Source: Candidatus Woesearchaeota archaeon
GTDB taxonomy: Archaea > Nanobdellota > Nanobdellia > Woesearchaeales > UBA12501
Direction of reading: 5' to 3'
Length of the DNA stretch: 64,000 bases
Assembly: GCA_046484055.1 (NCBI GenBank)
Contig: JAWOBY010000066.1
Span: 18,928-82,927 of the forward strand
The position numbers were made by a program, and so were the translations under genes. A model generated the notes under the pieces. The model searched no databases. It was given only the letters and a program-made list of their open reading frames with translations, and was not told the DNA's origin. Numbering within the stretch: position 1 is the first letter of the stretch; every line of letters begins with the position of its first letter. This document shows positions 28,858 to 38,186 of the stretch, piece by piece.

Positions 28858-29064
28858 CTATTTTTTCATGGACTTCTGGATCTTCTTTTCCTCTTTCTCT
28901 ATGGTTTCCTCTTCTTTGAGCACCTTGTTAACTACCTTCTCAACATGATGGTCTATCCTTGATATCCTCCTCTCAAGGAGCACAAGAATCCTGAGGCTGT
29001 ACACTATAGCTGCTAAAGTGCCTATTATGATGGCCAGAATAACTCCTTCAAGACTTAACGGCAT
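28858..29064 (-). CDS. Small single-pass membrane protein, hypothetical
   Basis: 68 aa with an N-terminal TM helix and a K/E-rich tail. Confidence 0.3.
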   Translation of the reverse strand: MPLSLEGVILAIIIGTLAAIVYSLRILVLLERRISRIDHHVEKVVNKVLKEEETIEKEEKKIQKSMKK

Positions 29065-29272: not shown

Positions 29273-30100
29273 TCACACAGAGAGTATCTCTTTTGCATGG
29301 CTGGCCTTCTCCCATTCACTGTCAAAAAGCTTTGTCAATGAGGATGTGAAGAATCCTGTGTTAACCCAGACTCCTGCATCATATGTGGGGTGTACGTCCT
29401 TATCATCCATGAGCATGAAGGTCAGCTCCTTGTCATCCACTATGCAGAACCTGGATTTCACATTCCCGATGTGCTTCACATGGGCAAAATTCTGGAGTTC
29501 TTTGATAAAAGGTTCTGTGTCTTTTGACAATGGCGCAGCTATCCTCACGTTGACCCCCCTGTCAGCGGCTTTCTTGAGGGTTGATTTCATATTCTCATAT
29601 TTTCTCTTCAGGCCTTCAGAGGTTGTCATTATGACAACTGATTTTTCAGCATTCTTTATCATTGATTCCATATGGGTATAGACAGAGGACCTTCCCTTAA
29701 GCGCTCCGCTGAGGTCTGTAGGCTCGACCATGTCCACTCCCTGCTTGTGGAGAGCGTTCAATTCTCCCAGGATCTCGGATGATTTTATGCCCTCGAGCAT
29801 CTTGGCCTGTTCATCAGCATTCTCCTTGACTTTTTTCTTTACCCTCTCGATCACTTCTGATGGGGGTACAGCAATGTACTTGATAGGCTTCCCGATCTTC
29901 ATTATGATGAACCCTTTCTTCTCGAGGCTCTCAAGAACATCATAACTCCTGCTCCTCGGAACATTAGCAATATCAGACAACTCACCAGCAGTAGACACAC
30001 CCCTACTAAGAAGAGCCGTCCATAATTTGCTTTCATATGTGTTGAGGCCAAAATCCTTTAATTTATTCAAAAATTTCTGTTGTATAAGCATTTTATGCAC
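29273..30100 (-). CDS. TrmB-family transcriptional regulator, paralog of the gene at 21591-22406
   Basis: The wHTH block is identical at both amino-acid and nucleotide level. The C-terminal effector domain has diverged (DDKDVHPTYDAGVWVNTGFF). Confidence 0.75.
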   Translation of the reverse strand: MHKMLIQQKFLNKLKDFGLNTYESKLWTALLSRGVSTAGELSDIANVPRSRSYDVLESLEKKGFIIMKIGKPIKYIAVPPSEVIERVKKKVKENADEQAKMLEGIKSSEILGELNALHKQGVDMVEPTDLSGALKGRSSVYTHMESMIKNAEKSVVIMTTSEGLKRKYENMKSTLKKAADRGVNVRIAAPLSKDTEPFIKELQNFAHVKHIGNVKSRFCIVDDKELTFMLMDDKDVHPTYDAGVWVNTGFFTSSLTKLFDSEWEKASHAKEILSV

Positions 30101-30379
30101 CTTTCTACCAAATATTTATAAACTGATATTTGGTGTGATTTAATAATAATTACAAAGGCTTTACAGCCTAAGAAACCCCTTTTTGGCAGAAGCACACCCA
30201 ATCCTGCCTACTCTTCATAGGATAGGTATACACAACTAATATATAAATATTTCTATTTTTTAGTATTGGGGAGTGATAAATTTTTTATATTCTGCCTTAA
30301 ATTTGCTTACAGCGGCTGTGGGATTAATATTCTGTTAAAACAATCATCCAACCCACCATTATTTCATACTCTGATCTTC

Positions 30380-30620
30380 CACTTTATTCACTTTTTGGGT
30401 CACCCCTTGATTTCATGTGGAGATTGGGGTAATAAAAAAATGTTTTATTAATTATTATTTTATTATTAATTAATTATTATTTTCTATATAGTAAATATAT
30501 AATATAAAAATAATAATAAAAAGAAAATGATTAAATAAATAATAATAGGCCCTTCCAGTGGAAATAATGGGGTCTGGGTTCTTTAGTTTCATAAAAAACT
30601 CTGTGGGGTCTTTATAGGAC
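30380..30620. promoter_or_regulatory. Putative chromosomal replication origin (oriC): AT-rich unwinding element flanked by ORB-like elements, upstream of orc1/cdc6
   Basis: A very AT-rich core spans 30431-30548. ORB-like TTCCAGTGGAAATAATGGGGTC lies at 30553-30574. A second, degenerate copy CATGTGGAGATTGGGGT lies at 30414-30430, preceded by CACCCC. It sits immediately upstream of orc1/cdc6. Confidence 0.6.
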
Positions 30621-30892
30621 AGACATTCGATGGGTATTCTCTTGCTGTTATGATATCACTTATAAAATTATAATAGTTTTTGGCCTTTATTTCAGGATTT
30701 CATTATTCTGACAGCGTATTTCATCATATTTTATCCCGCAGCCCATCCTTCATGCCCTTTTATAATATCTATCAAAAAATATATCTTCCATGACAAAAGC
30801 ATTTATTAAAGAGGGGTCATATGTCTTTAAGACCTTCTTTTCGTATGGAATTTGGGGCAGTGGGATATTTTTTAATTTAAAAAGGTGATTTT

Positions 30893-32101
30893 GTGGTAAA
30901 GGGAGCTAAAGACTATCTTGAGACCTACATGAACCGGAAATCGCTTTTCAATGATAAAAGCGCTTTACAGCCCAATTTCTTCCCTAAGAACGTAAAGCAC
31001 AGGGAGAATGAGGTAGAGCAGGTGACCAAGATTCTTGCCCCATCTCTGCGGATGAATAAACCATCCAATATCTTCCTGTACGGCAAGACAGGCACAGGGA
31101 AGACCCTCTGCGCAGGGCATGTAGCTGACCAGATTAGGGAGATCGCAAGGAAGAACAGCCTCCCGATAAATATAATATACATAAATTGCAAGCTGAAGAA
31201 GGTGACTGATACAGAATACAGGCTCATGGCCCAAGTGAGCCGTGAACTGGGGAAGGAGATACCTGCCACTGGCCTCCCCACAGATGAGGTATATAAGACA
31301 TTCTACGATGTCATTGATGAAAAAAAGCAGGTGCTGATACTTGTCCTTGATGAGATAGATCAGCTGGTCAAGAAGATAGGGGATGATATCCTCTACAACC
31401 TGACAAGGATAAACTCCGAGCTGAAGAACGCGCAGGTTTCTGTCCTGGGCATATCTAATGACCTTGTCTTTGCTGACAACCTTGATCCAAGGGTCAAGAG
31501 CTCCCTGTCAGAGGAGGAAATCATGTTCTACCCCTACAATGCCCTGCAGATACAGGATATACTGCGGGAGAGATCAGCAGCAGCATTCAATGAAGGGGCC
31601 CTGAGTTCAGGTGTTATAGAGAAATGCGCGGCCTACGCGGCCAGGGAGCATGGTGATGCGAGAAGGGCGCTTGAACTCTTGAGGACATCGGGTGAGCTTG
31701 CGGACAGGGAAGGAGAGGACAAGGTTGAACTCAAGCACATAGACCAGGCAGAGGAGAAGCTGGAGAGGGACAGGGTGGTGGATATAGTGCTTGCACAGCC
31801 TAAACAGTTCCAGGCCACGCTTTACGCGATACTATCAATCATGCCCGGCAAGGGCGGTGAGATATCAACAGGCGCGATATATGATTTTTACAGGAAACTC
31901 TGCTCCAAAACAGGGCTTAGGCCCTTGACACAGAGAAGAATATCTGATGTGGTGGCTGAACTCGACATGTTCGGCGTGATAAACGCGAAAGTCAGGTCAA
32001 AAGGCAGATACGGCAGGACAAGAGAGATAACCCTCGCTTTCCAGGAGGATATAATCCCAAAAATAAAGGAAATACTCATCTCGGATCTCGGCCTCAAATA
32101 G
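30893..32101 (+). CDS. orc1: Orc1/Cdc6 origin recognition / replication initiation protein
   Basis: AAA+ Walker A GKTGTGKT, Walker B LVLDEID. C-terminal winged helix. GTG start in the track; an alternative ATG lies at 30929. Confidence 0.9.
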   Translation: MVKGAKDYLETYMNRKSLFNDKSALQPNFFPKNVKHRENEVEQVTKILAPSLRMNKPSNIFLYGKTGTGKTLCAGHVADQIREIARKNSLPINIIYINCKLKKVTDTEYRLMAQVSRELGKEIPATGLPTDEVYKTFYDVIDEKKQVLILVLDEIDQLVKKIGDDILYNLTRINSELKNAQVSVLGISNDLVFADNLDPRVKSSLSEEEIMFYPYNALQIQDILRERSAAAFNEGALSSGVIEKCAAYAAREHGDARRALELLRTSGELADREGEDKVELKHIDQAEEKLERDRVVDIVLAQPKQFQATLYAILSIMPGKGGEISTGAIYDFYRKLCSKTGLRPLTQRRISDVVAELDMFGVINAKVRSKGRYGRTREITLAFQEDIIPKIKEILISDLGLK

Positions 32102-32193: not shown

Positions 32194-33864
32194 ATGGAAC
32201 AGGAATTTATGAGGAAAAGGGAGGCGGTGCATTTCTTCCTTGAAAGGAACCTGCTGTTATCCCCTGACATGGTCAAAAATTTCAGCAGCAGCTTCGGCAG
32301 AGAGGAATTCGAAGGATTATACAACTTCATAACGGACAAGTTAAAAGAGAAGAGGGAGAATGAGAACAAGGAAGGGGGGCTTCTCTTCGTAAACCATGAT
32401 ATAATCGAAGCAGCCAACAATCTTGAAGGGCTGGACTTCAACTGGGAGGACATAGAACGGTCAAGGGTGATGTATGAGAAGGATATCAACAGGACCACGT
32501 ACCTGCAGTTCCTTGAGAGTTTTAAGGAGGACATATTAGAGAAGTACAGCCCGCAGGGCGATCCTGAGGGGGGCGCAAGGGAGCTGGGAGGCAGTGAGGG
32601 CCTGCAGGACAAAGGTGTTAAGGTGGTGTCCTCTTATGATGAGGAGATAAAGAAAAAGGAGATACAGGATTTTGTCTGTTATTTCAACATGAGGTACAGT
32701 GCAATAAAGGGGATTCTCGAGAACAGGCAGGAGCTGCAACAGGCGGTTTCGATCAACAGGGTGCAGGGAATGAAAGAGAAGGGGTCTGTGGCGTTGATAG
32801 GTCTCGTGACAGAAAAATCCCTCACAAAGAACAATAACTATATTGTGACTCTGGAGGATCCGACAGGGACGATAAAGGTTCTGATAAACAAGAATAAACC
32901 TGAGACATACGAGTTGGCGCGGGAGCTGGTGCTTGACGAAGTGGTGGGGATTGCAGGAGCCAACGGGGACAATATTGTATTCGCGAACTCTCTCATCCTG
33001 CCTGACATACCCCTGCATAAGGAGATGAAGAGATCGCCCGAGGAGGAGTATGCCATCTTCCTTTCAGACATGCATGTCGGCAGCAACAATTTTCTGCCGG
33101 ATAACTTCAACAAATTCCTTGACTGGATAAACCAGAAAAGCGGTAATGATGCACAGAAGGAGATGGCATCTAAAGTGAAATACATCCTGATAATGGGAGA
33201 CCTTGTTGATGGTGTCGGGATATACCCCTCCCAGAACGAAGAGTTGGAGATAATGGACATATACGAGCAGTACAACGAATGCGCGAAATTGCTTGAAAGG
33301 ATACCCCCCCGCATACAGATAGTGATCTGCCCCGGCAACCACGATGCCATGAGGCTTTCCGAACCCCAGCCCCCCCTCTACAAGGATTTTGCAAAGGCAT
33401 TGTGGGAGCTCCCCAATGTGACTCTGGTGAGCAACCCATCTATGGTTAATATAGGGGCCACAGATGATTTTCCTGGTTTCGATATCCTAATGTACCACGG
33501 CTACAGCTTTGATTATTTTGTAGCTAATGTTGACTCTATACGCGAGGGAGGGGGGTACAACCGGGCGGACCTTATAATGAAATTCCTACTCCAGAGAAGG
33601 CATCTGGCCCCCTCGCATTCAGCCACTCTCTACATGCCTGACATCAATAAAGATCCGCTTGTCATCGATAAGATACCTGACTTTTTTGCTACAGGGCATA
33701 TCCACAAGGCCGCAGCAGCGAATTACAGGAACATAACAATGATATGCGGCTCATGCTGGCAGTCCAAGACATCCTTTCAGGAGAAAGTCGGCCACGAGCC
33801 TGAGCCGGCCAGGGTCCCCATGGTGAATCTCCAGACAAGACAGATGAAAATGCTGAAATTTTAA
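32194..33864 (+). CDS. DNA polymerase II (PolD) small subunit DP1
   Basis: OB domain. Calcineurin-like phosphoesterase motifs DMHVGS, GDLVDG and GNHD. 556 aa. Confidence 0.9.
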   Translation: MEQEFMRKREAVHFFLERNLLLSPDMVKNFSSSFGREEFEGLYNFITDKLKEKRENENKEGGLLFVNHDIIEAANNLEGLDFNWEDIERSRVMYEKDINRTTYLQFLESFKEDILEKYSPQGDPEGGARELGGSEGLQDKGVKVVSSYDEEIKKKEIQDFVCYFNMRYSAIKGILENRQELQQAVSINRVQGMKEKGSVALIGLVTEKSLTKNNNYIVTLEDPTGTIKVLINKNKPETYELARELVLDEVVGIAGANGDNIVFANSLILPDIPLHKEMKRSPEEEYAIFLSDMHVGSNNFLPDNFNKFLDWINQKSGNDAQKEMASKVKYILIMGDLVDGVGIYPSQNEELEIMDIYEQYNECAKLLERIPPRIQIVICPGNHDAMRLSEPQPPLYKDFAKALWELPNVTLVSNPSMVNIGATDDFPGFDILMYHGYSFDYFVANVDSIREGGGYNRADLIMKFLLQRRHLAPSHSATLYMPDINKDPLVIDKIPDFFATGHIHKAAAANYRNITMICGSCWQSKTSFQEKVGHEPEPARVPMVNLQTRQMKMLKF

Positions 33865-33918: not shown

Positions 33919-34638
33919 ATGAAGCAGAAAGCCATAATATTTGATTTTGATGACACTCTTGTTATGACCAAAGAGATATCCATAAACAAGCACAAAGAGG
34001 CTGCCAGACGGCTTGGCATAAGTTTCGATGAGAACGAGCTCATCAAGAGGTGGGGTATGCCATGGCCCGCTCTTCTTCACGAGTTCATGGGCGACCGGAC
34101 TGAAGAATTCATCAGTATGATGGGAGGGATGGACGAGTTCAGGATCAGGAGATTCAAAGGCGCAAACAAGGCGATATCAGAAGCAAGGGGGAAGGGAGCG
34201 CTACTCGGCATACTCTCATCAAGCGAAAGAGATTGGATTCTGCAGAAGTCAAAAGACGCGGGCATAAGGCTGGATCTCTTTGAAGGGGACCTTGTCTTCT
34301 CCAGTGAGGATGTGAGGAGACACAAGCCGCATCCCAAATCCTTTGAGGTGATCATCGATAAGCTGAAGGTGAAAGGCATATCAAAAAGCGAGATCACATA
34401 CTGCGGCGACAGCCTGATGGACTTCAGGACCTCCTCTGCCGCAGGCGTGAATTTCATTGCAGTCACCACCGGCTTCGCAACAACTGAGGATTTCATCAGA
34501 GAGGGGGTGGAAAGAGAGAACATAATCGATTCAATCGCCGGCCTTCCGGAAATATTAGATAAATCAGAGGGATCATGCGGCACGGAAGAGGGGGGAACCC
34601 TTCCTACTGCGGCAGCTGAAAGCCAGGGAGGTAAATAA
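33919..34638 (+). CDS. HAD-superfamily hydrolase (phosphatase-like)
   Basis: Motif I IIFDFDDTL. C-terminal GDSLMD. Its stop overlaps the DP2 start codon. Confidence 0.65.
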   Translation: MKQKAIIFDFDDTLVMTKEISINKHKEAARRLGISFDENELIKRWGMPWPALLHEFMGDRTEEFISMMGGMDEFRIRRFKGANKAISEARGKGALLGILSSSERDWILQKSKDAGIRLDLFEGDLVFSSEDVRRHKPHPKSFEVIIDKLKVKGISKSEITYCGDSLMDFRTSSAAGVNFIAVTTGFATTEDFIREGVERENIIDSIAGLPEILDKSEGSCGTEEGGTLPTAAAESQGGK

Positions 34639-37600
34639 TGGGTGAGACCACAAGCGCCAGCCCGGCCATGAACGCTTATTTTGAATCATTGTACAAGGAG
34701 CTGGACAAGGAATATGCTATAGCTGAAAAAGCCAGGAAGAAAGGCTATGATCCCGAGGAGAGGGTGGATGTGCCTCTCGCAAGAAACATGGCTGAGAGGG
34801 TTGAGGGACTGATATCTGCGGAGGCCCCGGAGATTACCGGCAAGGGCATGACTGAAAGGATTCAGGAGCTGGAGAACCAATACGGTGCGCTTGCCTGGGA
34901 GGTCGCCCTGATAATCGCGGAAGAGGTGGCGAAGGAGAAATTCTGCAAATTTGAGGACAGGAAAAAGGCGATAGAGACCAGCATAAGAGTAGGGATGGCC
35001 TACTCCACAGCAGGAATCGTTGCGGCCCCCCTTGAGGGTTTTGTGGAGATAAGGTTCAAGAAGAGGAAGGATGGCAATGAATACCTGGCATTGTGTTATG
35101 CGGGGCCCATAAGGGGTGCGGGCGGCACAGCGGCCGCATTCTCTGTTCTGATCGCTGATTATGTGAGAGGGAAGCTCGGTTACGCGGGTTATGATCCTGA
35201 TGAGTCAGAGATAAAAAGGTTCTCCACTGAGATCGATGATTATCATGAGAGAGTGACCAACCTCCAGTACCACCCCACGAATGAGGAGGTTGAGTTCCTT
35301 GTCAGGAACCTTCAGGTTGAGGTTGATGGTGATCCGACTGAGCAGATAACAGTCTCCAATCATAAAGGTCTTGACAGGATAGTTACAGACCGGATAAGGG
35401 GTGGTGTCTGCCTTGTGCTTGCGGAAGGACTTGCCCAGAAAGCACCCAAGCTCTGGAAGAGACTGAAGCAGTGGGGCGGCAAGTTTGACCTTGAATGGGG
35501 GTTTCTGGAGGAATTCCTTGACATTCAGAAGAAGATAAAAGGAAAGCTTGAAACCAAGGAGGGGAAGAAACTCACACCCAATTATGTCTACATCACTGAT
35601 CTTGTGGCCGGCAGGCCCGTCCTCACACACCCGATGAAGGCAGGCGGTTTCAGGCTCCGTTACGGCAGGAGCAGGACATCAGGATTCTCCGCATGTTCAA
35701 TCCATCCGGCCACCCAGCTTGTGCTCAACAAATACATCGCCACAGGCACACAGATAAAGGTTGAGAGGCCCGGCAAAGCGGCGGCGGTGACAGTATGCGA
35801 TACCATAGAAGGCCCGATAGTAAAGCTTGAAAGCGGTAAAGTGGTACAGCTTAAGTCCGGAGAGGATTTCAGGATGTTAGGTGAGAAGATAACAGAGATA
35901 TTATTCCTGGGGGACATACTGTTCAATTACGGGGATTTTTCAGAGAACAATCACATGCTCGTCCCTCCTGGTTATTGTGAGGAGTGGTATCTCAAGGAGC
36001 TGGAAAAGGGGATGGTGGATAATTTCGGAACAATAGATATTGAGAAGCTTTCACATATGGCAGGCGTTGAGCCCGGGAAGATAAAGGGTTTTTTCAGCGA
36101 TCCCCACCGCAACACCCCTGCCTTTGATGACGTTCTTGCGTTGTCCAAATCCCTCAATGTTCCCCTCCACCCTGCATACACCTATTACTGGAGTACGATA
36201 GGAAAGGATGATTACATCTCACTCATGGAATGGCTGATGAAATGCAAGATCGAGAGGAAGGGGGGCGCATGCAAGATGATCATCCCCTCTGATGATGCAG
36301 GGAAAAGGACTCTCGAGCTTGTGGGGGTGCCTCACACTCTCGCTTCCAATGAATTCGTGGTCATCGAGGATGAGCACTCAAAAGCGCTCATGGCCAACAT
36401 CGGCGCGGGGGAAGACGGGTCCGGAATACAATCAGCGATCCAGAAAGCGCATGAAGCCGGAACCGATGATGTGCTGGAGATAATCAACAAGACCGCAGGA
36501 GTAAGGATAAGGGACAAGGCGGGAACATTCATAGGCGCCAGGATGGGCAGACCTGAAAAGGCAAAGATGAGAAAGCTCACCGGCAGCCCGCAGGTCCTCT
36601 TTCCTGTAGGTGAGGAAGGGGGCAGGCTCAGGTGCTTCCAGTCCGCATTAGAGAAAGGGCAGATAACCGCTGATTTCCCTGTATACAAGTGCAACCAATG
36701 CGAAAAAGAGACGATATACAGGATCTGCGAATCATGCGGTAACAGGGCCACAAGAATATACAATTGCAGGACGTGCGGGCCTAAAGAGACCAGCGAATGC
36801 CCCGCTCACGGGGAGACTGACGCTTACACCAGGAAGAGTATAGACATAAAGCATTTCTTCAACTCAAGCCTCAAGATGCTGGGCATGAGAAGCTACCCTG
36901 ACCTGATAAAGGGTGTGAAAGGGACGTCCAATAAGGACCACACACCTGAACATCTTGCCAAAGGGCTGTTGAGGGCCAAACATGAGATATATGTCAATAA
37001 GGACGGCACGACACGTTACGACATGACCGAACTGCCCATAACCCATTTCAAGCCCAAGGAGATAAAGACATCAATTGAGAAGCTGAAAGAGCTCGGTTAT
37101 GAGAAGGACATAAGGGGCATGCCGCTTGAGGATGAGGAGCAGGTGCTTGAGCTCAAACCCCAGGACCTGATACTCCCCTCCACACAGTATTCCATGGATG
37201 AGGCCGCGGATGAGATACTTTACAGGACAGCCAATTTTGTTGATGACCTCCTGAGGAACTTTTACGGGCTTAAGCCGTACTATGATCTCAAGAGCAAACA
37301 AGGGGTGGTCGGGAGGCTTGTTATAGGCCTCGCCCCCCACATCTCAGCAGGGATAATAGGGAGAGTGATAGGATTCTCTGAGACGCAGGGGTGCTGCACC
37401 CATCCATTATGGCATGCAGCTATGAGGCGTGACTGCGATGGTGATGAAGCCTGCGTCATGCTCCTTATGGATGCGCTGCTGAACTTCTCCAGGCAATACC
37501 TGCCTGACAAGAGGGGGGGCAGGACAATGGACAGCCCTCTTGTCCTCACAGCAACAGTAGTGCCGAGCGAGGTCGATGACATGGTCCACGGACTGGACAT

Positions 37601-38186
37601 TGTATATGATTATCCGCTTGAATTCTATGAGGCCGCCCTCAGCTACAAATACCCTTATGAAGTGGATGTGGAGCAGCTGAAGAAACGCCTCAGCACCGAG
37701 GGGCAGTATGAAGGCCTCGGTTTCACACACGACACCAGCAATATCAACGCAGGAGTCAACTGCTCATCCTACAAGACCCTGCCGTCAATGGAGGAAAAAC
37801 TGAAGGGGCAGATGGAGCTTGCGGAAAGGATAAGGGCTGTTGATGAGGCGGATGTGGCAAGGCTTGTCATAGAAAAGCACTTCCTGAAGGATACCAAGGG
37901 TAATCTGAGAAAGTTTTCCATGCAGGAATTCAGGTGCTCAAAATGCAACGAGAAATTCAGGAGGCCGCCTCTGCTGGGCAGGTGCACCAACTGCGGGGGC
38001 AACATCATCTTCACAATATCAGAGGGTTCTGTCATAAAATACCTTGAGCCATCCGTAAGCCTGGCTAACAAGTACAATGTGCCCCCATACCTGAAGCAGT
38101 CCCTCGAACTCGTCAAGAGGAGGGTCGAGGGTGTGTTCGGAAGAGAGAAAGAGGTGCAGAAGGGACTGGGGGCCTGGTTCGGCTGA
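34638..38186 (+). CDS. DNA polymerase II (PolD) large subunit DP2
   Basis: 1182 aa. Conserved DP2 blocks. Zn-finger cysteines (CNQCEKE...CESCG, CSKCNEKF...CTNCG). No intein. Confidence 0.9.
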   Translation: MGETTSASPAMNAYFESLYKELDKEYAIAEKARKKGYDPEERVDVPLARNMAERVEGLISAEAPEITGKGMTERIQELENQYGALAWEVALIIAEEVAKEKFCKFEDRKKAIETSIRVGMAYSTAGIVAAPLEGFVEIRFKKRKDGNEYLALCYAGPIRGAGGTAAAFSVLIADYVRGKLGYAGYDPDESEIKRFSTEIDDYHERVTNLQYHPTNEEVEFLVRNLQVEVDGDPTEQITVSNHKGLDRIVTDRIRGGVCLVLAEGLAQKAPKLWKRLKQWGGKFDLEWGFLEEFLDIQKKIKGKLETKEGKKLTPNYVYITDLVAGRPVLTHPMKAGGFRLRYGRSRTSGFSACSIHPATQLVLNKYIATGTQIKVERPGKAAAVTVCDTIEGPIVKLESGKVVQLKSGEDFRMLGEKITEILFLGDILFNYGDFSENNHMLVPPGYCEEWYLKELEKGMVDNFGTIDIEKLSHMAGVEPGKIKGFFSDPHRNTPAFDDVLALSKSLNVPLHPAYTYYWSTIGKDDYISLMEWLMKCKIERKGGACKMIIPSDDAGKRTLELVGVPHTLASNEFVVIEDEHSKALMANIGAGEDGSGIQSAIQKAHEAGTDDVLEIINKTAGVRIRDKAGTFIGARMGRPEKAKMRKLTGSPQVLFPVGEEGGRLRCFQSALEKGQITADFPVYKCNQCEKETIYRICESCGNRATRIYNCRTCGPKETSECPAHGETDAYTRKSIDIKHFFNSSLKMLGMRSYPDLIKGVKGTSNKDHTPEHLAKGLLRAKHEIYVNKDGTTRYDMTELPITHFKPKEIKTSIEKLKELGYEKDIRGMPLEDEEQVLELKPQDLILPSTQYSMDEAADEILYRTANFVDDLLRNFYGLKPYYDLKSKQGVVGRLVIGLAPHISAGIIGRVIGFSETQGCCTHPLWHAAMRRDCDGDEACVMLLMDALLNFSRQYLPDKRGGRTMDSPLVLTATVVPSEVDDMVHGLDIVYDYPLEFYEAALSYKYPYEVDVEQLKKRLSTEGQYEGLGFTHDTSNINAGVNCSSYKTLPSMEEKLKGQMELAERIRAVDEADVARLVIEKHFLKDTKGNLRKFSMQEFRCSKCNEKFRRPPLLGRCTNCGGNIIFTISEGSVIKYLEPSVSLANKYNVPPYLKQSLELVKRRVEGVFGREKEVQKGLGAWFG

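Follow-up and report, generated by a model that had tools for sequence, protein, structure and literature searches.

The window analysed here is a 64-kb stretch of DNA from a Woesearchaeota (DPANN) archaeon, and at the center of the analysis is an intergenic spacer of 792 bp (30101-30892, or 30092-30892 if the TrmB-like gene on its left begins at ATG). To the right of this spacer lies the orc1/cdc6 initiator gene (30893-32101, plus strand), which encodes a protein of 402 aa from a GTG start and contains Pfam AAA+, Cdc6 lid, and Cdc6 winged-helix domains. It is followed on the same strand by genes identified with Pfam as the small subunit of PolD, DP1 (32194-33864), a HAD hydrolase (33919-34638), and the large subunit of PolD, DP2 (34638-38186). 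An earlier note on this DNA had described a spacer of ~790 bp directly upstream of orc1, in agreement with the measured length, and orc1 followed by the PolD genes as in Pyrococcus; orc1, DP1, and DP2 are indeed present in that order, but a HAD hydrolase gene separates DP1 from DP2. The start of orc1 at 30893 appears to be GTG, preceded by AAAAGGTGAT, and an ATG is found at the aligned position in the four closest orthologues.

To the left of the spacer, a TrmB-family gene, similar to TrmBL2 in length and architecture, is encoded divergently (29273-30091, minus strand; to 30100 without an ATG start). Its product, 272 aa from the ATG, contains the Pfam TrmB HTH and TrmB regulator domains. Of the NCBIfam families it best matches TrmBL2, a chromatin protein of Thermococcales (PMC3031468), but the score of 79 bits lies far under the cut-off, which is 530. 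The TrmB-like gene is followed by an ORF of 68 aa (28858-29064, minus strand) with a hydrophobic N-terminus, the first 40 residues of which are 82-95% identical in the orthologous loci L005, L006, L008, L020, and L062; it matched no NCBIfam family. A non-coding RNA in the spacer was considered and rejected, as neither tRNA genes nor Rfam families at gathering thresholds were detected anywhere in the 64-kb window.

Orc1 matches a protein of a Woesearchaeota MAG in NCBI with 100% identity, and its close relatives all belong to Woesearchaeota or Nanoarchaeota. The nearest solved structures are those of Sulfolobus solfataricus Cdc6-1 (2QBY_A, E 8.5e-104) and Aeropyrum pernix ORC1 (2V1U, E 1.6e-93), both of which were solved with DNA of the origin recognition box (ORB) bound. 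Since these are its closest solved relatives, the protein is assigned to the Orc1-1 class.

Orthologous loci were collected at several distances. A contig scan yielded four loci, including L001 and L004 at 58-62% Orc1 identity, and the closest set comprises L005-L009 at 67-77% Orc1 identity. The synteny of a minus-strand TrmB gene, the spacer, and a plus-strand orc1-DP1-...-DP2 cluster is common to L005, L006, L008, and L009, while the contig of L007 starts within the spacer; the TrmB-like gene is absent from the 4 kb upstream of orc1 in L001 and L004. The order orc1-DP1-HAD-DP2 is also present in L005-L008. The HAD gene has no counterpart at the P0011 locus, where DP1 is followed directly by DP2, and an unrelated 304-aa gene occupies its position in L009. 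A homologue of the TrmB-like protein (55-77% identity) is encoded divergently beside the orc1 origin in 26 loci, namely L005, L006, L008, L009, and 22 others, and it is about as well conserved as Orc1.

A 22-nt ORB matrix was built from 13 boxes of L004-L009 only and used to scan both strands of the window (128 kb). The three top matches all fall inside this single spacer, and the fourth-best reaches 9.8 bits. The best of the 64 kb is the right box, ORB-R (30553-30574, plus strand, TTCCAGTGGAAATAATGGGGTC; 26.4 bits), and the second-best is the left box, ORB-L (30401-30422, minus-strand sequence CTCCACATGAAATCAAGGGGTG; 23.9 bits); the G-strings of the two face outwards from the AT-rich tract between them. 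The third is a promoter-proximal ORB-like box (30829-30850, minus-strand sequence TTCCATACGAAAAGAAGGTCTT; 15.5 bits). In shuffled windows the mean maximum was 11.0 bits and the highest 16.5, and both flanking boxes thus score above all shuffles. The box is 22 bp long and consists of a TTCC...GGAA dyad core and a G-string, with a gap of 4 nt before the G-string. TTCCAGTGGAAATAATGGGGTC is unique in the window, and an exact search of both strands of the 64 kb finds its 12-nt core TTCCAGTGGAAA at this single place. The first 13 nt of ORB-R are the reverse complement of Pyrococcus furiosus ORB1 (PMC1904270), and the agreement over TTCCAGTGGAAAT is with a Pyrococcus box that is bound in experiments.

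The earlier note had located ORB-R exactly, as an ORB-like TTCCAGTGGAAATAATGGGGTC at 30553-30574, where the top matrix score now falls. Its left copy was correct as to the letters, CATGTGGAGATTGGGGT at 30414-30430 with CACCCC at 30401-30406, but not as to the forward orientation, because the box is inverted: CACCCC is the G-string of the inverted ORB-L rather than a separate preceding element. The forward reading of the left box (TTCATGTGGAGATTGGGGT) scores <3 bits vs 23.9 bits for the inverted form, which is also the form matched by the orthologues, and in the alignment the left boxes of L005, L007, and L008 coincide with ORB-L. A search for the 12-nt core with 3 mismatches gives 52 matches in the window vs 70 expected, which is chance level. 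Because the left copy is not significant by this measure, the orthologous loci were used, and ORB-L is accepted on the full 22-nt matrix and its conservation at those loci rather than on the 3-mismatch core match. Three further boxes picked by eye (30350-30375, 30587-30608, and 30684-30705) were discarded, each with <3 bits and none conserved. A second ORB cluster inside dp1, in the style of Thermococcales, was likewise rejected, with no match >10 bits in dp1 or elsewhere in the window outside the spacer.

Between the boxes lies an AT-rich tract (30430-30547) of 118 nt with 5 G/C (4% G+C), a putative duplex unwinding element (DUE); the earlier note had given it as ~120 nt of nearly pure A/T at 30431-30548. 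No other such tract in the window comes close in length, the runner-up being 36 nt, and the 118-nt tract constitutes the least stable duplex of the 64 kb at 50, 100, and 150 bp. Its stability is -88.6 kcal per 100 bp vs a window mean of -138.5 with an sd of 7.3 (~6.8 sd below). The arrangement is therefore an inverted ORB pair around an AT-rich element, ORB-L(-) at 30401-30422, DUE at 30430-30547, and ORB-R(+) at 30553-30574, in which the 130-bp spacer from ORB-L to ORB-R holds the least stable duplex of the window. On the plus strand the left half of the DUE is T-rich and the right half A-rich, with AT skew changing from -0.19 to +0.40, and skew is higher on the right than on the left in 26 of 32 metagenomic loci with a box pair (p = 1.6e-4). 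Given these asymmetric halves, the ORB-DUE-ORB unit can be described as a large imperfect dyad with a palindrome at its center; its single-strand fold z-score is -3.4.

An alignment of the five closest spacers gives a mean column identity of 53%, with discrete conserved blocks. From left to right these are the left box, ACCCC-N4-TTTCATNTGGAAA; a central TTATTTTCTATATAGAAAATATA; the right box; a promoter block, GACAAAAGCATTTATTAA; and CCTTCTTTTC..TGGAAA just 5' of the start codon. The ORB(-)/DUE/ORB(+) arrangement is kept in loci at 58-78% Orc1 identity despite divergence of the rest of the spacer. A larger sample was obtained from a metagenomic scan with Orc1 alignment, which added 80 loci (L010-L089) at 58-67% identity, none of them used in training the matrix; they include near-duplicates (L014/L015 and L056/L057) and are not phylogenetically independent. 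ORB counts were taken from the 47 of these 80 loci with at least 700 nt upstream of orc1. Matches of at least 15 bits number 90 in 46 kb upstream of orc1 vs 0 in 145 kb of orc1 and downstream sequence. In 43 of the 47 loci some 60-nt stretch contains no more than 5 G/C. All 35 minus-strand boxes lie to the left of this AT minimum and 42 of the 44 plus-strand boxes to its right, so that the G-strings face outwards. In 32 of the 47 loci an ORB(-)...ORB(+) pair with each box at or above 15 bits is found, with a median spacer of 239 nt and 17% G+C. The earlier note had named a lack of ORB conservation at orthologous loci as the result that would speak against an origin, and these counts and orientations are the opposite of such a result.

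The same sampling bears on whether an AT-rich spacer tract and ORB-like words could simply have come together by chance. [quoted passage not shown] Chance co-occurrence is already refuted by these observations, and we give it practically no weight.

The arrangement extends beyond Woesearchaeota. At a Nanohaloarchaeal locus (L002, 53% Orc1 identity) an ORB(-) at 391 and an ORB(+) at 522 flank an AT-rich patch, and an extra ORB(+) at 129 and a promoter-proximal box at 582 bring the span to 129-603. As these boxes were found with a matrix trained on Woesearchaeota, the ORB type is common to at least two DPANN lineages.

Taken together, the ORB scores, the DUE, the adjacency to orc1, and the conservation among orthologues support the oriC reading put forward in the earlier note. 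The segment 30401-30574, which sits in the spacer adjoining orc1/cdc6 and 320 bp upstream of the gene, is very probably the core of an Orc1/Cdc6-dependent chromosomal replication origin (oriC) of this archaeon, as judged from its sequence. If the origin works like Sulfolobus oriC1 and the origins of Aeropyrum and Pyrococcus, each box would be occupied by a single Orc1 monomer with a fixed polarity, ATP-bound Orc1 would bring MCM hexamers to the spacer from its two ends, and melting would begin in the AT-rich tract, leading to bidirectional replication. Orc1-adjacent origins with inverted ORBs are already textbook knowledge, and the origin described here is of a known type.

Two putative promoters flank this core. 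That of the TrmB-like gene (30240-30279, minus strand) comprises a TATA element, TTTATATA, at 30240-30247, a BRE at 30248-30254, and a dyad operator at 30260-30279; this block is conserved in the closest loci. A dyad of the type TTGYTA-N8-TARCAA lies directly upstream of the TrmB-like BRE/TATA in about 20 loci. Its half-sites co-vary among loci (TTGTTA-N8-TAACAA, TTGCTA-N8-TAGCAA), and the window reads TTATCA-N8-TACTAA. The dyad is probably an autoregulatory site, distinct from the palindrome in the DUE. An element AAGAAACCCCTTTTTGGC at 30165-30190, in the ~150-nt leader of the TrmB-like gene, is common to L005, L007, and L008; in distant loci the leader is much shorter and does not carry it.

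On the other side, a BRE/TATA-like block, the putative orc1 promoter (30792-30809, plus strand, GACAAAAGCATTTATTAA), hardly varies among the five closest loci. The promoter-proximal box at 30829-30850 lies between its TATA-like element (30802-30809) and the GTG start at 30893, and the CCTTCTTTTC..TGGAA block of this box is conserved in the alignment. ORB-like boxes of at least 15 bits within 60 nt of the orc1 start are found in 11 of the 47 loci, on the minus strand in 10 of these. Because the box is located about where transcription should begin, it suggests autorepression of orc1, in which Orc1, by analogy, would repress its own transcription.

This box and the two flanking promoters, along with the skew signal that was looked for and not found, are also what could be expected if all the boxes were only transcriptional operators through which Orc1 regulates orc1 and the TrmB-like gene, with the AT tract a promoter-rich spacer and replication starting elsewhere. 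The two strongest boxes, however, lie at neither promoter, being separated by 240-470 bp from the TATA-like element of orc1 and by 120-310 bp from the TATA of the TrmB-like gene at 30240-30247; a 118-nt tract at 4% G+C far exceeds what a promoter needs; and outward-facing boxes around an extreme AT minimum in dozens of loci form an origin pattern, not an operator pattern. We therefore hold a purely regulatory role of the boxes to be highly improbable.

Nucleotide skew, which the earlier note had suggested as a check on the origin, was analysed across the window. No replication-related GC or AT skew switch was found at 30.49 kb in the 64-kb window once gene orientation was accounted for. In a per-gene skew regression the effect of the side of 30,490 was -0.008 +/- 0.016 and that of gene orientation 0.127 +/- 0.016. 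Cumulative skew over the window follows gene orientation, the best skew split is near 57 kb, away from the putative origin, and genes are not polarised around the site (10 plus and 14 minus on the left, 12 plus and 12 minus on the right). As 64 kb is too short to decide and skew-based origin prediction fails in some archaea, for example Thermococcales, the null result neither supports nor refutes an origin.

The missing skew switch is also compatible with an origin that is genuine by architecture but dormant or secondary, the main replication proceeding from another origin or by recombination-dependent initiation. Such behavior has precedents, since orc1-adjacent origins can be dormant or dispensable in some archaea, among them Thermococcus kodakarensis (PMC5663688) and haloarchaea (PMC4595724). 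Against this stand the strong purifying selection on the architecture across the order, the lack of any ORB match elsewhere in the 64 kb, and the class of the adjoining initiator, Orc1-1, which defines the most conserved archaeal origin. Dormancy consequently appears quite improbable to us, and an active chromosomal origin remains the favored interpretation.

Within the DUE, exactly midway between the two ORBs, is a palindrome of 16 bp (30480-30495), which reads TTTTCTATATAGTAAA in the window and has the consensus TTTTCTATATAGAAAA. It is centered at 30487.5, and the distance from there to where ORB-L ends and to where ORB-R begins is 65.5 nt in both cases. The window contains one match at no more than 2 mismatches vs 0.03 expected. 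In the metagenomic set the palindrome is present in 20 of the 32 inter-ORB segments vs 0.17 expected, with a maximum of 2 under dinucleotide shuffling, and over all fetched loci there are 45 matches in 61 kb upstream of orc1 vs 2 in 346 kb elsewhere, the upstream matches being spread over 44 loci. The palindrome was not found at the Nanohaloarchaeal locus L002. No description of it was found in the literature searched. It is the sole part of this origin that goes beyond expectation, and it looks lineage-specific. A promoter function was rejected on inspection: the palindrome contains TATATA but has no purine-rich BRE on either side, from which we infer that it does not serve as one.

The closest parallel for a centrally placed element is Sulfolobus oriC1 (ORB3-DUE/ucm-ORB2, Orc1-1). 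Both origins lie immediately 5' of a gene of the orc1-1 type and consist of inverted ORBs around an AT-rich DUE, and both have a short conserved motif halfway between the boxes, ucm there and the palindrome here. In Sulfolobus, ucm lies midway between ORB3 and ORB2, is essential for firing, and is bound by the nucleoid protein UBP, which is proposed to sit between two MCM hexamers (PMC12141716). UBP is reported to be restricted to Sulfolobales and Desulfurococcales, and the 2025 study asked about analogues in other lineages (PMC12141716). The two origins differ in that the ORB of Sulfolobus is 36 bp long vs 22 bp with a 4-nt gap here, and in that the present origin is a predicted one. Compared with the ucm type, a motif inside the DUE midway between the ORBs is present, whereas a match to the ucm consensus TTATACAAAC is absent, the 16-bp palindrome TTTTCTATATAGAAAA being unrelated to it in sequence. 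The palindrome is therefore an analogue of ucm by position only and not a member of the type.

By the same analogy, the palindrome would most likely be where a dimeric accessory factor binds or where the two MCM hexamers meet. A more specific proposal, which we offer tentatively and with less than even confidence, is that Woesearchaeota origins contain a lineage-specific third cis element, TTTTCTATATAGAAAA at mid-DUE, that may be bound by a dimeric accessory protein between two loaded MCM hexamers. If this were true, the palindrome would represent, in DPANN, an independently evolved equivalent of the ucm/UBP system of Sulfolobus. The TrmBL2-like protein encoded divergently is one candidate for binding the palindrome, and this candidacy is so far not supported: the putative operator of its own gene (TTGYTA-N8-TARCAA) has another half-site and another spacing, and the palindrome is also present at loci without an adjacent TrmB gene. 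As the operator is unlike the DUE palindrome, nothing indicates binding of the TrmB-like protein at the center of the origin.

Other known origins share the flanking elements of this locus. The origin of Pyrococcus abyssi and Pyrococcus furiosus has the same oriC-orc1-DP1-DP2 neighborhood, an ORB core identical over TTCCAGTGGAAAT, and a long ORB pair as an inverted repeat. Unlike the present box, the Pyrococcus ORB has a longer spacer before the G-string (TGAAACTCTGGGGGG), and that origin includes numerous mini-ORBs of 13 bp as well as a further ORB cluster in dp1, neither of which is seen here above 10 bits; the HAD hydrolase gene between DP1 and DP2 is a feature of the present locus. Haloarchaeal oriC1 likewise has inverted ORBs with a terminal G-string around an AT-rich region beside cdc6, but its G-string is extended, its boxes are usually more numerous, and a central palindrome is not described there.

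The ORB(-)/DUE/ORB(+) pattern, which has been described as the minimal functional pattern for archaeal oriCs, also fits the generic CDC6-type oriC of Ori-Finder-Arch, although the latter is without the central palindrome and the promoter-proximal box. The 2026 Ori-Finder-Arch preprint gives this pattern for 67% of predicted CDC6-type oriCs in complete genomes and reports automated oriC annotation across phyla that include Nanobdellota; its main text contains no lineage-specific description of a Nanobdellota or Woesearchaeota origin. In a second 2026 preprint, 208 Nanobdellota genomes were rotated to ORC1, and its text contains none of the terms ORB, oriC, or skew. No paper pairing DPANN or Nanoarchaeota with "origin recognition box" was found in the literature searched.

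The ORB(-)/DUE/ORB(+) arrangement of Sulfolobus and Pyrococcus thus also holds in Woesearchaeota and Nanohaloarchaea. The palindrome offers a concrete and testable candidate site for an accessory factor inside the unwinding element, of the kind asked about in the 2025 study of Sulfolobus oriC1 (PMC12141716). As a sequence-defined origin for Woesearchaeota, the locus could be used in orienting assemblies, in coverage-based estimates of growth, and in explaining contig breaks. Among the 80 metagenomic contigs, 35 have less than 760 nt of sequence on the upstream side of orc1, and contigs as long as 26-194 kb are among them. Some ends lie inside the AT-rich tract, as in L021 and L078, and others at the palindrome in L049 and in a (CTA)n microsatellite in L043, and this clustering of contig ends near the upstream region of orc1 and the DUE suggests that the origin is a frequent assembly breakpoint.
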